Shown here piece after piece: positions 44,067 to 54,288 of a stretch of 64,000 nt of DNA (position 1 is the stretch's first letter; each line of letters starts with the position of its first letter). The position numbers and the translations under genes are program-made. A model generated the notes under the pieces. That model was not told where the DNA came from. It worked only from the letters and a program-made list of their open reading frames with translations, and did no database searches. This stretch comes from Sedimentisphaerales bacterium. Lineage in GTDB: Bacteria > Planctomycetota > Phycisphaerae > Sedimentisphaerales > Anaerobacaceae. The stretch lies in NCBI GenBank assembly GCA_963708075.1, contig OY970194.1:320001-384000 (forward strand), given 5' to 3'.

Positions 44067-44671
44067 TATCATGTCTGAGATCGCGTGCTCACCCCATCGG
44101 CCAGCGAAATAAGTGCCATATCTGCGGAACTGCTGTTCGATGGGCGGAGATCACCTTGGGAGCAGTCCACTGTGTGACCAGAGGTGAACCACGATATCGG
44201 GACCAAGTCGCGTAAGGATGGAGACTAGAATGATCGCTACAAGAATTAGGAGCAACCACTTGGCCTCGCCAGCACCGGCGGACTCGCCTTCCACGATGAA
44301 TTTCCATTTTGCCTTCATTTCTGATAGGACCCTCAACAATTCACCTGTGTTTGTCAGAGCACACTACTCTGAATCTCTCACTATTATCGGCAACGCAAAG
44401 GGGAGCGACATACATGTATTAAAGGATACAATATATCCTGTAGTCGTCGTGGTCGTGGCGGTTTTCGGGTGCCCACAAGTGGTTGGCGAGCAAGGACTTA
44501 CGGCAATATCCTATCTGACCCCCTGCGTCTTGAGAGCAACAGGATGCTAATCACGATGGAATGATCAATCAGAAAAGAGTGTATATGCACAGAATTACAT
44601 TGAAATAATGGCATGGGTGCTCTACCATGAGCGTGCGAAGTCAATGGAACCACTCTCGACAGGTATTGAAG

Positions 44672-45373
44672 ATGGCGAATGGACGACGAGATGCTGTGAT
44701 CTACATGCTGAGTTCGGAGTCTGTGCGAAGCCAACGAGCTGATTTCGCACGTCAAGAGCGCCGAATACGCGCGTATGCCAGAGACCACGCATTTGACATA
44801 GTGACCGAATTCAGGGACGCGTGTATCGCGAGCGCTGCAGGCCTAAAACAGAGACAATATCTGGCGGTCTTATTAGACTACGTTGAGCAGCGTAACCGCG
44901 GGGGGACGGTCCTCGTCGAGAAGGCTGCTCGTCTAGCTTGTGACCCGATCCTCACCGAAGTCATACTTGCCCAGTTCAGACGGCGTTACGTCGATGTGAT
45001 TGCTGTGGACTCCGGTTTGGAACTGACCTTAGACGACTCTGATCCTTCGTGTGCACTTACTCGGAAGATTCTTGACGTTATTACCAAGTTCGGAGAGTGC
45101 ATGCTGCCCCTGAAATTGAAAGCTGCTCGTCAGCGCGTTAGGCGGGAAAAAGGCTATTGTGAAGGGCCTAAACCATTTGGGTCTTGCGCATCTGAACGAG
45201 AAACGCTGAATAGAATCCTCACACTTCGTCGTCAGGCGCGCGGCAAGAAACGCCTTGGCTATTACCGTATCGCCACAATACTCAACAAAGAGGGGCATCA
45301 GACGCGCTCGGGGTGTCCTTGGATAGGTCCAACCGTTAGAGGAATAATCCACCGATATGAGAGAAAGCAGTGA
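44672..45373 (+). CDS. Serine recombinase/resolvase-like protein with degenerate catalytic motifs
   Basis: RQERRIRAYA, VLVEKAARLA, GPKPFG, IATILNKEGHQTRSG..W..TVRGI. YxRxS and DRLxR are not intact. Confidence 0.75.
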   Translation: MANGRRDAVIYMLSSESVRSQRADFARQERRIRAYARDHAFDIVTEFRDACIASAAGLKQRQYLAVLLDYVEQRNRGGTVLVEKAARLACDPILTEVILAQFRRRYVDVIAVDSGLELTLDDSDPSCALTRKILDVITKFGECMLPLKLKAARQRVRREKGYCEGPKPFGSCASERETLNRILTLRRQARGKKRLGYYRIATILNKEGHQTRSGCPWIGPTVRGIIHRYERKQ

Positions 45374-48728: not shown

Positions 48729-48899
48729 ATGCCGGCACAAGTGGATAATGGCAAATGCACGGGTTGTGAGTCCTGCACACAAGAATGCCCGAGCAATGCG
48801 ATCAGCATGGACAAAGGCAAGGCAAAGGTGAACTCGGACAGTTGTGTGGACTGCGGCGTGTGTGTTGACACCTGCCCGGCCGGAGCGATAAGCCTCTAA
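48729..48899 (+). CDS. 2x[4Fe-4S] ferredoxin, 56 aa (not in ORF track)
   Basis: MPAQVDNGKCTGCESCTQECPSNAISMDKGKAKVNSDSCVDCGVCVDTCPAGAISL: two CxxCxxCxxxCP motifs. Confidence 0.95.
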   Translation: MPAQVDNGKCTGCESCTQECPSNAISMDKGKAKVNSDSCVDCGVCVDTCPAGAISL

Positions 48900-48983
48900 G
48901 GATTTACGATTGACGATTTACAATTTACGATTTGGCTGTCGCCTCTCGCGAGGCCACAAATCGTAAATCGAAAATCGTAAATT
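48900..48983. repeat. Heptamer-repeat palindrome
   Basis: GATTTACGATTGACGATTTACAATTTACGATTT ... AAATCGTAAATCGAAAATCGTAAAT. Confidence 0.8.
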
Positions 48984-48992
48984 GCCGAGTGT

Positions 48993-49067
48993 GGCCCCAT
49001 CGTCTAGGCTGGCCTAGGACACCGGGTTTTCAACCCGGCAACAGGGGTTCGAATCCCCTTGGGGCTA
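48993..49067 (+). tRNA. tRNA-Glu (TTC)
   Basis: GGCCCCA/TGGGGCT acceptor stem, CCGGG-TTTTCAA-CCCGG anticodon arm, GTTCGAATC T-loop; CCA not encoded. Confidence 0.96.
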
Positions 49068-49216
49068 ATAGGATTTACGACTTATCATTTGCGATTTGTG
49101 GTGTCCACCGCCCGCCCGTGGACTCGCCGGCCTGAGGCGGACGTTCCGCTGAACTAGCCAATCCCGTTCACCTGGGTAATCCTGCCCCCGGCCTTCGGCC
49201 GCAACCGGGAATCAGT

Positions 49217-49294
49217 TCGCGCAGAGACGCGGAGGCGCAGAGAAGACCGAACCCCAACACTCGCAAACCTCAGTGTCCCTGCGCCTCCGTGCGA
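49217..49294. repeat. Palindromic repeat resembling the 45780 type
   Basis: TCGCGCAGAGACGCGGAGGCGCAGAG ... CTCAGTGTCCCTGCGCCTCCGTGCGA. Confidence 0.6.
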
Positions 49295-49391
49295 TACAAT
49301 TCTTTTCTCAACAAAGGCTCGCACGCTGTTGCCCAGATGACTGGAGATCCTTTCCGCCGATTGCGAGGTGCCTGTGTAGTTTGACGGACAG

Positions 49392-50202: not shown

Positions 50203-50442
50203 CTAATTCAGCTTGTTCCTGATCTGGTTCCATTCGGCTCTTGCCGGAGCTCCAGCCGCCAGCCAAGCCTTAATGTCATCTGCACGCCAGCGAACCGCGC
50301 CGCCGATTCTGAAGCACTCAGGCCCCAGCTTCTGAAGCTTGTTCAGCCGGAATATCTGGCGTTTCGATAACCTGAGTCGCTGTCCGAGCATCTTGGCATC
50401 CCACAGTTCATACGCTTGGGTGCCACTCTGTGACTGACACAT
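50203..50442 (-). CDS. AlpA/excisionase-like HTH protein
   Basis: LWDAKMLGQRLRLSKRQIFRL...FRIGGAVRWRADDIKAWL; GGAGG RBS. Confidence 0.8.
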   Translation of the reverse strand: MCQSQSGTQAYELWDAKMLGQRLRLSKRQIFRLNKLQKLGPECFRIGGAVRWRADDIKAWLAAGAPARAEWNQIRNKLN

Positions 50443-50599
50443 ACATGTGCCTCCCAAAAATGGATTTCCTGTCACTACTTTTGATTAGTGAGACCGGATG
50501 CGTGGGATCCGCGCAGATTGAGTAAAAAGCCGCTTACTCGCGCACTATACAAGGGGGTGGATTTTCGCGGAAATCCGCTTTAATCCGCTTTTGAGGGAT

Positions 50600-51556
50600 T
50601 CAGATTTCGTCGTGTTTGACTATGCTTCGGCCCGTTCTACCTGCGCGAGGATGGTTCTTCTGAGTTCCATATGCCCCCCGTCCGGCCCGAACCTGTCTCG
50701 CCCACGTCTCGAAGCTTGGGAGTTCATACCCTTCGAAGCCATGCTCTGTCAGCCAATCGTGTACCTGCCGATCAGTCTTTAACGTAGGGTCCTGCTCCGC
50801 TGCCCATTCGTAACTGCGGTAAGCCTTCTCATTTGCACACGTGAGCCCTCCACTATCAACAGCCGCCGGTTGCTTCGCTTCCTCCAATAGCCTCAGCCGC
50901 TCTTCCGCCTTCTCCCGGAGAAGCTGCAAGGCCAGAATGCTCGCTTCACAGATATCTTGCCGGATACCTCGTATCTCAACACCCGGCACATCATCGAAAT
51001 CGGCAATCCGCTCTCCGTGCAGGATGGGGGAATTGACCATTTCCGCCGCTGCCCACAGAAATTCAAACCAGTGGCAGTGATAATTGTTCCGGGCGACGGC
51101 TGAGGCAGCGTATATGCTGCTCCATGTTGAAAAGCTATCCAAATACGTGAGAAACTCGGTTCTCTCTCCAGGCGGGAATCGCACCGTAAGTGCTTTGACA
51201 GCAGACTCGACGGCTTGCATCACCGCGAAGAACTCCGCTCTATCAATCACATCTGTTGAAGCGAAGTACCACGTGTACTCATCCCCGTTCGGTCCTGATG
51301 GTGTTCCGCTCCAACAACGGGTAGTATCTTGCTCAAACCCGGCTTCCACTCTGTCAGCTTGGCCTGATAGCACCCGGTCCTCAATATGGCGGTACTCGAC
51401 ACCAGCGGGACAGGTTGTGCTCCACCAGAGCCATTTCTGCTTGGCACTGGCTTTAACCTGTCGAAATGACTCCAGCAGCATATCGACCGTGCCGATCAGT
51501 CGCCGGTAGTCCTGTGCATTGGGTCTATCTGCCCGCTTCTTCTCGCTTCTCGTCAT
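50600..51556 (-). CDS. Hypothetical protein, possible regulator of the element
   Basis: 318 aa ORF upstream of the alpA-like gene; basic C-terminal region. Confidence 0.55.
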   Translation of the reverse strand: MTRSEKKRADRPNAQDYRRLIGTVDMLLESFRQVKASAKQKWLWWSTTCPAGVEYRHIEDRVLSGQADRVEAGFEQDTTRCWSGTPSGPNGDEYTWYFASTDVIDRAEFFAVMQAVESAVKALTVRFPPGERTEFLTYLDSFSTWSSIYAASAVARNNYHCHWFEFLWAAAEMVNSPILHGERIADFDDVPGVEIRGIRQDICEASILALQLLREKAEERLRLLEEAKQPAAVDSGGLTCANEKAYRSYEWAAEQDPTLKTDRQVHDWLTEHGFEGYELPSFETWARQVRAGRGAYGTQKNHPRAGRTGRSIVKHDEI

Positions 51557-51576
51557 GAAACACCAGCCCGCGCATG

Positions 51577-51645
51577 AAAAAAGCCGGGGAGTCGATGAGG
51601 TTCCGTAGAAACCCGGTGCCCGTTGCCGGTGCACCATACCCCGGT
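51577..51645 (-). ncRNA. Candidate structured leader RNA / attenuator
   Basis: An outer CCGGGG/CCCCGG stem encloses two hairpins (one with a GCAA tetraloop) and is followed by T6. Confidence 0.5.
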
Positions 51646-51879
51646 GGGAATTATTGCATATAGCGCGTGGATCGAGCCTACAGATTTCATCGGCGTTCAT
51701 TATCTCAAAACCGGAGACGATTTCAAGGCTTTCCGCTTGATTCCCCGCGTGCCGAAGGGCTATAATGCACGTATAGCATGGACGCGAGCAGCGCACGTGG
51801 AGACGGCAGGAAGCACCGATCTAACCGTTCCCCGGAGGCGGGGTGTAAGAACTGTGCGGTATCTGTTGGAGGGCATACG

Positions 51880-52866
51880 ATGAAGGCTTTACTGTTCATG
51901 CTCCTTGCGCTTGTCGTCATTATTCTCACACAGGCGAGACTCTGCCAAGCTGATATGACTCCCGGCTCTCTCGTGGCGTGGGGTCACAATGGCTATCAAC
52001 AGCTTGCTGTTCCTGCTGGGTCAGACTTCATCGCTGTGGATTCAAGTTTCTGGTATCACAGTGTAGCCCTCAAAGCAGACGGCTCTCTGGTGGCATGGGC
52101 CGGAAACAGCCCCGGCTGTAGACTCGTTCCTTCAGGCAGCGATTATGCTGCCGTCTCAGCTGGTTCGTATTACAACTTGGCCCTCCGAAGTGACGGTTCC
52201 TTGACGGCTGCTGGCGCGACCAGTCATGGCCAACTCGACGTGCCATTGGGTAACAACTTTGTTGCCATATCAGCGGGGAGGTATTACGGTTTGGCAATCA
52301 GGACAGATGGCTCTCTCGCTGAATGGGGCGAATATGCCCTCGGCGCTCCCTCGGGTAACGACTTCGTGGCCATCGATAATGGGATCTTCCACGCACTTGC
52401 GTTGAGGAGAGATGGTTCTCTCGCAGCGTGGGTCAACCCGGCCATCAACCTTGGGGTCTGGGACTATGGGCAGGAGGATGCACCTACAGGTTCGGATTTT
52501 GTTGCGATTGCCGCAGGTGGCTATCACAGCCTCGCGCTCCGTGCAGACGGGACTCTCGTCGCTTGGGGTGCAAACGATTATGGCCAGTGTGACGTGCCCA
52601 CGGAGAACGACTTCATAGGCATATCCGCTGGGGAGATGCACAGCCTCGCCCTACGCTCAGACGGCTCAGTTGTAGGTTGGGGCTGGAATCGGTACGGTGA
52701 AGCGAATGTGATGGAAGGTTCCTTTCAAGCCATTTCTGGCGGAGCTTACTACAGCGTCGGCATACAGGCCGTCCCTCTGCCAAGCGGTGTCTTGCTCGCC
52801 GCTCTCGGATTGGCGTACTCCGGTTGGCGGATTCATGGTCACGAAGCGGGGAGGAAGGTAGCATGA
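51880..52866 (+). CDS. RCC1/BLIP-II repeat beta-propeller with VPLPA-CTERM (PEP-CTERM-like) tail
   Basis: Signal peptide, about seven AISAG.YHSLAL..DG.LVAWG units, C-terminal VPLPSGVLLAALGLAYSGWR. Confidence 0.85.
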   Translation: MKALLFMLLALVVIILTQARLCQADMTPGSLVAWGHNGYQQLAVPAGSDFIAVDSSFWYHSVALKADGSLVAWAGNSPGCRLVPSGSDYAAVSAGSYYNLALRSDGSLTAAGATSHGQLDVPLGNNFVAISAGRYYGLAIRTDGSLAEWGEYALGAPSGNDFVAIDNGIFHALALRRDGSLAAWVNPAINLGVWDYGQEDAPTGSDFVAIAAGGYHSLALRADGTLVAWGANDYGQCDVPTENDFIGISAGEMHSLALRSDGSVVGWGWNRYGEANVMEGSFQAISGGAYYSVGIQAVPLPSGVLLAALGLAYSGWRIHGHEAGRKVA

Positions 52867-53213: not shown

Positions 53214-53570
53214 CATCCGGGATTATGCTTCCGCTACCTGGGACCCATCGCCAGAAACAGGCTCGCTTCAAATGCAAGATACATGGTACTGCGGGGACCC
53301 CTTAGCCGTACGGGCAGGGGGCTGCCCCGCCCATGCCTCACCTGCCTGCCCGCGTTGTCCACAGCGGCCCCTGCTCGGCTTAGGCTGCCCAATCTCGCCC
53401 CGCTCTGACCAGTGCCAGCACCGCCGCCTTGATATGCTCCGGCAGTTTCGGCCAGCGTTCCTGAATGAGTGCCAAGTCGGGGTCAGAAGGGGAGTTTTCG
53501 TCGTTTGGTGCGCCGGTTTTTGCGCCGCGCGTTTCCGAAATCGGCGTTTTTGGTGGCGCCAGTGGGGACT

Positions 53571-53591
53571 GTTCGGACCCCCTTGGGGCTA
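53571..53591 (+). other. attR-like copy of the tRNA-Glu 3' end
   Basis: GTTCGGACCCCCTTGGGGCTA vs GTTCGAATCCCCTTGGGGCTA. Confidence 0.8.
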
Positions 53592-53595
53592 GTCG

Positions 53596-53686
53596 GATTT
53601 ACCATTTGTGATTTCCTATTTATGATTTCGCGCCTTGCTCACGGCACACGCCAAATCGTAAATCATAAATAGCAAATCGCAAATCC
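53596..53686. repeat. Heptamer-repeat palindrome
   Basis: GATTTACCATTTGTGATTTCCTATTTATGATTT ... AAATCGTAAATCATAAATAGCAAATCGCAAATC. Confidence 0.8.
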
Positions 53687-54166
53687 TCAGACGCGAAAGC
53701 CCGTAATGCTGGCCTCGAAAGCCAGGGTATTGGAGACGACCCCCTGGACATCGCATGCGTACCTTCTGCCTCGCCTGGCCTCCGTAATGTGGCCGAGCAG
53801 GTAGAGCCGGCATCCCGGCTCAATCGCGGACCGAAATTTCGCCCGCTCGATGCCGCCGAAGCCGACAAACCCGCTCTCATCGTATGCATGCTTGACAAAG
53901 AAGCTGAGCAGTTGAGCGGCCGCCTCGATCTGGATCACGCCCGGCATCAGCGGCCGGCCCGGAATGTGCCCGCGGACCCAAAACTCGTTCTCCGTGACGT
54001 CCTTATAGCCGAGCACGCACTCCTTGGCCCTGTCGTACCACAAGATGCCGTCGAGCTGCTGCATCTCGAATCGTTGCGGATTGATGCTGCAGATCGCGTC
54101 CTTATCAAAGACGGGCGGGCCGCTCAGATCGATGGATGATAGGTCAAATAGCAGAGACGGTGCCAT
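53687..54166 (-). CDS. 3-hydroxyacyl-ACP dehydratase (FabA/FabZ family)
   Basis: NPQRFEM, FWVRGHIPGRPLMPGVIQIEAAAQ, AKFR. Confidence 0.88.
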   Translation of the reverse strand: MAPSLLFDLSSIDLSGPPVFDKDAICSINPQRFEMQQLDGILWYDRAKECVLGYKDVTENEFWVRGHIPGRPLMPGVIQIEAAAQLLSFFVKHAYDESGFVGFGGIERAKFRSAIEPGCRLYLLGHITEARRGRRYACDVQGVVSNTLAFEASITGFRV

Positions 54167-54288
54167 CGGTAACCTCAACTTCGAGGATAATAGACAAGAG
54201 GCAGAAGAACAGGGACGGAAACCCTGCCGTCGGTCGTTCTTCCATCCTTCGGGTTCAGCAGTGGCGACTTGTCGAGATCGCCTGTGGA

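Follow-up and report, generated by a model that had tools for sequence, protein, structure and literature searches.

In a 64,000-nucleotide stretch of DNA from a Sedimentisphaerales bacterium (phylum Planctomycetota; contig OY970194.1, positions 320,001 to 384,000; hereafter, the window), the 3' end of a tRNA-Glu gene is present twice, and an open reading frame without a start codon begins within the displaced copy and runs into the DNA between the two copies. Where does such a frame come from, and does it encode part of a functional protein? The first-pass annotation of this DNA proposed that it is a C-terminal fragment, the parent gene being complete solely in the excised circle of an integrative element. 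This proposal is borne out by the homologs of the frame that contain a PF00589 catalytic domain and carry the same peptide at their very end, and by in-frame fusions in reconstructed circles. The explanation that, in our opinion, probably accounts for the observations as a whole is that the frame is the stranded C-terminus (hereafter, the tail) of a tyrosine integrase encoded by a group of related elements in which attP lies inside the integrase gene.

The tRNA-Glu locus and its island

The only tRNA gene that ARAGORN identifies in the window is tRNA-Glu(TTC), at 48992-49068. The features relevant for the present analysis are the following, in window coordinates.

48992..49068, plus strand: tRNA-Glu(TTC) gene, uninterrupted at the left junction and the target of integration (ARAGORN)
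49047..49067, plus strand: attL; the att core is the T-arm and 3' acceptor strand of tRNA-Glu
49068..49330: expected site of the integrase 3' end and arm repeat, now host-type dispersed repeats
50203..50475, minus strand: AlpA/excisionase-like helix-turn-helix (HTH) gene, a leftover element core gene (phmmer, PHROG)
50600..51796, minus strand: 398-codon open reading frame (ORF) of unknown function, with weak matches in three other tail-bearing loci
51778..52866, plus strand: cargo gene for an RCC1-repeat protein (Pfam PF13540, E = 5e-36)
53380..53589, minus strand: start-less 69-codon frame, the probable detached C-terminal tail of a tyrosine integrase
53404..53484, minus strand: conserved tail core, residues 36-62, a predicted two-helix hairpin (AlphaFold2, codon analysis)
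53509..53526, minus strand: arm-type DNA repeat GGCGCA-N6-GGCGCA, translated GAKTGA, the integrase-side partner of which is missing here
53571..53591, plus strand: attR, the displaced 3' fragment of tRNA-Glu, the antisense reading of which gives the first residues of the frame
53687..54178, minus strand: host fabZ/FabA-like gene in the right flank (Pfam PF07977)

The two copies of the tRNA-Glu 3' end, 4524 bp apart, match over 21 bp with two mismatches in the T-loop, and the similarity extends past this core (78% over 59 bp). In addition to the genes listed above, the island of approximately 4.5 kb between them contains two short unknown ORFs and a 116-codon ORF. The product of 50203..50475, which has no Pfam match of its own, is similar to the protein of an intact element, L023, that Pfam recognizes as AlpA (phmmer E = 6e-16) and to PHROG 66 (E = 9e-6). 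The RCC1-repeat protein has a signal-like N-terminus and a VPLPSG-type hydrophobic motif at the C-terminus. The site is flanked by a ferredoxin-like gene on the left, so labeled from its cysteine pattern, and by the fabZ-like gene on the right.

Among 20 regions downstream of fabZ that were fetched from relatives, tRNA-Glu is present as well in eight. Four of these eight are empty sites (L118, L120, L123 and L130), in which fabZ comes right after the tRNA, with about 185 bp from the start of the tRNA to fabZ; two contain other inserted genes, without an att copy or a tail; and in the remaining two (L116 and L117), a tail is found together with an att copy, without an integrase. This is thus a true integration site, and the island is an insertion.

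Two AT-rich imperfect palindromes with heptamer-like repeats, mutually inverted, flank the island (48892-48982 and 53604-53694); these belong to a host repeat family with 50-108 matches in the genome by blastn. A lower-GC stretch beyond the att pair, on the left side of the island, contains a resolvase-like (PF00239) ORF of 248 codons (44627-45373, plus strand). One sequencing run, X1, matches 53458-53770 letter for letter and may be the source sample. Neither an attP nor an empty-site joint appeared among the contigs of four DNA sequencing runs, a result that carries no weight at such thin coverage.

Anatomy of the start-less frame

The 69-codon minus-strand frame of the first-pass annotation does begin in the 21-bp copy of the tRNA-Glu 3' end at 53571-53591, with the correction that its first codon (Ala) is at 53589 rather than at 53591; the translation from 53589 to 53380 reads APRGSEQ...DPDLALIQERWPKLPEHIKAAVLALVRAGRDWAA*. 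From stop to stop, the frame comprises 72 codons: the stop codon that had been noticed just outside att is a TAA three codons out, and there is indeed no ATG or GTG ahead of att. The absence of the corresponding N-terminal part from this locus holds as well, given that the counterpart of the frame at the tRNA end runs into a TAA three codons upstream of att, and that a Pfam scan of the ORFs between the att copies detected no integrase (PF00589).

Three segments can be distinguished within the tail. Residues 1-6 are antisense tRNA. Residues 7-35 form a linker that is predicted by AlphaFold2 to be disordered and is conserved largely at the DNA level (pS 0.44 vs pN 0.33, with invariant third positions). 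The linker encompasses the arm repeat, two units about 12 bp apart. In 17 of 18 intact elements, this repeat has a near-identical partner within the integrase gene, 116-155 bp ahead of att, which scores above all 50 shuffles. By analogy with what is known of the lambda family, these paired repeats are putative arm-type binding sites of the integrase. The core, residues 36-62, by contrast, is conserved as protein, with pS of 0.55 against pN of 0.17 over 1,809 pairs, a contrast that is inflated by the gathering of the loci with a peptide pattern and comes from non-independent pairs. The shifted frames of the core show no such excess of pS, with the exception of the mirrored antisense frame, where it is weaker, and two core leucines that are not part of the search motif show 96-98% conservation while all six leucine codons are used. 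A comparison of the window with a same-site relative (L136) reveals five synonymous and one non-synonymous codon differences in the core, and two and nine, respectively, in the linker.

AlphaFold2 predicts for the window tail two helices, at residues 37-48 and 51-68, with pLDDT of 92-95 at residues 41-60. A fold search with this hairpin yielded a best Z of 3.2, and none of the 48,161 chains reached Z>=5. The peptide matches no family in Pfam, NCBIfam or PHROG; a PDB sequence search with it produced two chance matches only; ESM Atlas returned only unnamed Planctomycetota clusters, with recognition below threshold; and there is no real match in 50,697 GenBank phages or in GenBank plasmids.

The tail and tyrosine integrases

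Forty-eight homologs of the window peptide are of similar length, and their N-termini are translations of the antisense strand of a tRNA T-arm. Among 35 longer homologs, 18 contain a PF00589 domain, all with the tail as the C-terminus, and in many, perhaps most, of these PF00589 proteins an antisense tRNA piece is lodged between the catalytic domain and the tail. The tail itself, 69 residues in the window, lacks catalytic motifs, the catalytic domain being upstream of att. In the AlphaFold2 model of one fused relative (P0050), a recombinase catalytic fold is followed by a long disordered linker and a separate hairpin. The two integrases that were scanned, those of L023 and P0050, match PF00589 and PF13102 only, and PF16795 is absent.

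The family is large. A profile of the tail retrieves 6,798 clusters at 50% identity (E<=0.001), and matches are present in 30 of 41 close relatives and in 17 of 81 genomes across the phylum. The fetched loci contain 178 distinct tails, of which 171 could be scored. The first-pass annotation proposed to check whether homologs abut tRNA 3' duplications; a tRNA-like match lies within 330 bp upstream of 146 of these 171 tails, compared to 23 of 150 control stretches for which an identical cutoff was used. In 94 of the 146, the match is a strong antisense 3' fragment, and these fragments represent 25 tRNA types, with the caveat that the assignment of short ones can be wrong; in 89 of the 94, the frame is open from att through to the core. 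A minority of the tails sit in sense orientation to the tRNA. A second geometry, in which both the integrase and the tail are co-oriented with the tRNA, was observed in L084 (256-9518), L029, L042, L169, L191, L192 and L213; in L084, the two still fuse in frame, via a 45-bp duplicate of the 5' half of the tRNA.

A search with the integrase alone, without the tail, covered clade A3 only and yielded 80 genome loci and 18 viral loci. After the removal of six duplicate loci, 117 integrase ORFs were examined, 81 of them with a tRNA close by. Over their last 40 codons, 74 of these 81 are open into the adjoining tRNA, as against 49 of 162 control frames, and seven stop short of the tRNA. The distance from the catalytic tyrosine to the tRNA end is 43-167 codons, with a median of 63 (64 loci; a motif filter left 13 loci out of this count, whereas the open-reading and circularization counts were made without it). 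In its integrated form, the integrase terminates after a stretch of antisense-tRNA residues with a median length of 12. Each of the three possible frames across the tRNA end is used.

Circularization was modeled for those of the 75 loci with enough upstream DNA in which an att duplicate was present within the fetched DNA, namely 22 elements of 3.4-11 kb; the other 53 had no second att within the fetched DNA and are thus outside the fusion count. In the in-silico circles, the integrase frame continues into an open extension of 63-94 codons in 21 of 22 cases, compared to four of 44 for the other frames. In 17 of the 22 elements (all eight found through the tail and nine of the 14 found through the integrase), the integrase frame reaches more than 15 bits with the tail profile, and none of the 44 other frames is positive, the score never exceeding 2 bits there. 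Thus, circularized relatives join the peptide in frame to a tyrosine recombinase, as the first-pass annotation anticipated. The remaining five of the 14 integrase-found elements encode a long in-frame extension that the profile does not score although, by eye, it resembles such a pair of amphipathic helices; the tail thus differs among the elements. In L231, the in-frame tail lies behind one stop codon in the linker; in L027, in-frame fusion occurs via a 44-bp repeat, with no tRNA called at att. For five further loci (L014, L037, L047, L065 and L085), the nearby integrase was deemed an unrelated neighbor, with no true att pair.

Fused genes with an internal tRNA fragment also occur naturally, on the viral contigs L303, L305 and L307 and in L154 and L076. 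Such metagenomic genes could represent circles, or else assembly joins or tandem junctions, and L258 does contain a tandem junction. In P0080 and L244 (5985-7238), the integrase is joined to the tail through a short linker devoid of a tRNA fragment, as if a deletion between the two arm repeats had removed the att core; such an enzyme would carry its tail permanently. The tail is common to two integrase clades that share 13% identity in a profile alignment. Taken at the level of sequence, we find it almost certain that the architecture is that of an integrase gene spanning attP.

A model of the integration cycle and its alternatives

As the sequences show, the gene in the circular element consists of the catalytic domain, a linker of about 60 codons with an arm repeat, the antisense 3' end of the tRNA, a second linker of approximately 25-35 codons with the second arm repeat and, finally, the conserved two-helix hairpin. 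Integration preserves the catalytic domain, exchanges the last 60-90 residues for the short antisense-tRNA ending, with its median of 12 residues, and strands the tail, start-less, at the far junction. In the model that we propose, the hairpin would function as a protein-interaction module, probably one of self-association, which appears to be the likeliest means of a switch. Under this model, the circle-encoded enzyme would be the efficient, integration-competent form and the clipped chromosomal form would be weaker, so that the integrated state is stabilized, with the full gene restored upon excision, as reported for Mx8. We lean, by a small degree only, toward such an activity switch, in which the tail-bearing enzyme favors integration. 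Many intact elements (13 of 23) possess an excisionase-like HTH gene, so the tail need not control the direction of recombination.

Conceivably, the severed tail is instead produced as a separate small protein, started at a tRNA-end ATG or at a rare start codon, that acts in trans, as a dominant-negative inhibitor of full-length integrases that arrive later, a directionality factor or a complementing piece, with hosts keeping the tail while losing the integrase; we consider this improbable. The presence of an ATG within 3 nt of the start of att in 25 of the 94 antisense tails, the persistence of integrase-less tails both at the site considered here (the window, L116 and L117) and at two other loci of the genome, and the five-to-one ratio of synonymous to non-synonymous differences between the cores of the window and L136 are all compatible with it. 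However, the boundary ATG derives from the tRNA-end sequence (Lys, Val, Tyr) and is also present on the integrase side, and in 39 of the 94 tails the frame lacks any ATG ahead of the core. The first-pass annotation had named start codons of their own in homologs as evidence against its reading; in the event, a part of the family has such codons, which are tRNA-derived, and another part has none. The window copy has as candidate starts only a rare ATC at 53598 and an in-frame TTG within the peptide, and no minus-strand promoter-like site was found for it; moreover, parts of the motif are lost in the orphan tails L116, L117 and L124. A more far-reaching proposal, which we put forward as a speculation with the odds clearly against it, is that the tail is a detachable regulatory hairpin domain, phylum-wide and previously unannotated, that is kept in frame across att despite changing clade, tRNA target, frame and orientation and that, once cut off and separately translated, would inhibit or redirect related integrases, thereby providing site-level superinfection exclusion that hosts retain after the loss of the integrase.

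It also appears unlikely that the tail is a degradation or instability signal that renders the circle-encoded integrase short-lived, to be stabilized upon integration. There is a precedent in the attP-dependent loss of a C-terminal proteolysis tag from the repressor of phage BPs, documented in an excerpt of PMC3694055; a disordered linker followed by a terminal element would suit engagement by a protease; and the window peptide ends with AA, as does the host tmRNA tag. This reading fits poorly, nevertheless, because the tail ends vary: the final residues of 155 distinct tails show no conservation (the commonest final pair occurs in seven, and K, R, A, E and G are all common), and the distance from the conserved tryptophan to the stop codon is variable. 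In addition, the conserved part is a folded amphipathic hairpin, and an integrase that is more stable once integrated would destabilize the element.

The island itself is probably a relic that has lost the integrase, the attL arm and the replication genes. In the window, the arm repeat is found on the tail side only and not at the tRNA end of the element, where the repeats of 49068-49330 have up to 25 matches elsewhere in the genome (blastn). In the intact element L023, the genes for a primase or helicase, an excisionase and the integrase lie between AlpA and the tRNA, and this is the segment that is missing in the window. The genome has four PF00589 genes, two of them XerC/D-like by sequence, none of which belongs to the tail-linked clades or resides at this locus; a cognate integrase was not found in this one-contig assembly of 92.8% completeness. 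We interpret the island as a deletion relic because the arm at the tRNA side, the integrase and the replication genes are absent, and the genome has no cognate integrase. The core is still conserved in comparison with L136, so either the loss was recent or the orphan tail remains under selection. There is a slim chance that, far from being dead, the island is a non-autonomous element with retained att ends, mobilized by an integrase that is provided in trans: both att cores, one arm repeat and the AlpA-like gene are still in place, and integrase-less, tail-bearing islands recur in the genus. Against this, apart from the missing tRNA-side arm and cognate integrase, the att copies differ at two of the 21 positions.

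Finally, it is very unlikely that the frame is a by-product, i.e. tolerated read-through, without a protein function, of att-arm DNA kept for integrase binding: the DNA-level conservation, arm repeat and predicted disorder in the first half of the peptide fit this notion, but it applies to the linker only, whereas in the core the residues are fixed while synonymous sites vary. The core also maintains the integrase frame whichever tRNA is the target and whichever of the three frames is used, and it is common to two clades as distant as those described above.

Relationship to known systems and implications

Going by the order of the parts, the layout of the planctomycete genes is of the Mx8 type and not of the archaeal SSV1 type. 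The SSV1 precedent invoked in the first-pass annotation does not hold since the catalytic tyrosine, 43-167 codons before the tRNA end, stays in the N-terminal part; pNOB8, also cited there as a split integrase, is presented as classical and unsplit in an excerpt of PMC8371274. In the Myxococcus phage Mx8, as in the planctomycete elements, int runs antisense through the tRNA 3' end at attP, with the catalytic domain upstream, and its C-terminus is replaced; the Mx8 Int sequence has its parts in the same order as the planctomycete integrases. Mx9 is said to resemble Mx8, with attP inside int. Integration of Mx8 replaces 112 residues by 13, and the clipped product is called less active in a passage of PMC4701971, whereas the portion of PMC6070905 that deals with this change describes altered specificity more than lower activity. 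The Islander paper, as excerpted (PMC4383910), states that the Mx8 and SSV integrases extend across attP. The planctomycete tail is, however, unrelated in sequence to that of Mx8 (hhalign probability 0.2%, E 0.28; the tail HMM gives -0.1 bits on Mx8 Int) and differs in spanning two distant integrase clades, some 25 tRNA targets, three frames and both orientations, in small satellite-like elements.

Other systems share individual components of this arrangement. In the suicidal integrases of SSV1, pTN3 and pT26-2, att likewise lies inside the gene and tRNAs are the targets, so that the gene is split on integration, but PF16795 is present there, and it is the C-terminal fragment that is catalytic, both halves being called inactive (PMC8371274, in part); here, the catalytic domain stays intact and a small tail is removed. 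In the integration-dependent immunity of the mycobacteriophage BPs, a gene spanning attP loses its C-terminal segment on integration (PMC3694055, excerpt); there, the gene encodes the repressor and the segment is a short proteolysis tag, in contrast to int and a folded hairpin with variable ends here. The serine integrases of streptococcal rumA-targeting ICEs, as summarized in part of PMC4701971, also contain att and exchange their C-terminus on integration but differ in being serine recombinases of conjugative elements with a protein-coding target.

The element family is small in size (3-11 kb), satellite-like and planctomycete. With an integrase, an AlpA/excisionase HTH protein and a primase or helicase, the intact relatives resemble PICI satellites, and some encode a terminase small subunit, a prohead protease or capsid proteins. 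A PICI-like gene set (int, AlpA/xis, primase and a packaging gene) is full in L023 and partial in others, and the window retains only the AlpA-like gene; to our knowledge, PICI integrases do not normally span attP. Four elements of 7-9 kb (L084, L229, L286 and L293) contain a prohead protease or protease-capsid gene, and their gene content suggests capsid-related satellites in Planctomycetota. In L245 (2438-8967), an att-flanked 11-kb element carries genes for NADH dehydrogenase/antiporter-type subunits as cargo.

A literature search on integrases and att sites of Planctomycetes/Planctomycetota, with incomplete coverage of subscription journals and preprint supplements, found no matching paper; in PMC8138268, the terms 'planctomyc', 'attP' and 'split' are all absent. 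An attP inside the integrase gene is considered rare in bacteria, being a property of 'very few integrative elements' in the words of an excerpt of PMC4701971. Against this rarity, it is the rule for a large planctomycete family. The layout has a precedent in Mx8, from which the planctomycete family is set apart as a variant by a conserved hairpin that occurs across integrase clades, targets and frames and abounds in a single phylum. The family offers many natural pairs of full-length and clipped enzymes for testing how the tail sets the direction of integration. It identifies as integrase tails a common class of 'hypothetical proteins' encoded next to tRNA fragments in planctomycetes, and shows the integrases annotated in genomes with such elements to be clipped forms; for the construction of integration vectors in this phylum, the form that spans attP would be required. 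The tail marks the edge of an island even after the integrase is lost, and the window copy is a decayed example of the family.

Other copies and islands in the genome

The same genome (coordinates on G000:C1) contains a second integrase-less island, of 1.7 kb, at tRNA-Arg(CCT) (L007, 447657-449446), with a 14-bp att copy and a tail that is 59% identical to that of the window, and a third, degraded tail in sense orientation behind a tRNA-like 3' end (L008, 4907359-4907637). Integrase remnants that lack the middle part, with the N-terminal portion joined to the C-terminal one, lie beside tRNA-Phe and tRNA-Asp (4183289-4183915 and 1918798-1919280, respectively). Two further tRNA 3' duplications, with no tail detected, delimit an island of about 16 kb at tRNA-Ser (2584956-2601389) and one of about 60 kb at tRNA-Met (7038334-7098285), the latter with a PF00589 gene beside the tRNA.

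A gene encoding a protein with a hydrophobic C-terminus of the VPxPG/VPLPS type is located within approximately 1 kb of all three tail copies examined in this genome (372770, which is window position 52770, 448031 and 4906584); by pattern, there are 61 such ends in the 7.5-Mb genome. Genes of this type are present also in L023 and L116, with no match in 22 of 23 intact elements, and they may be a favored cargo in the genus.
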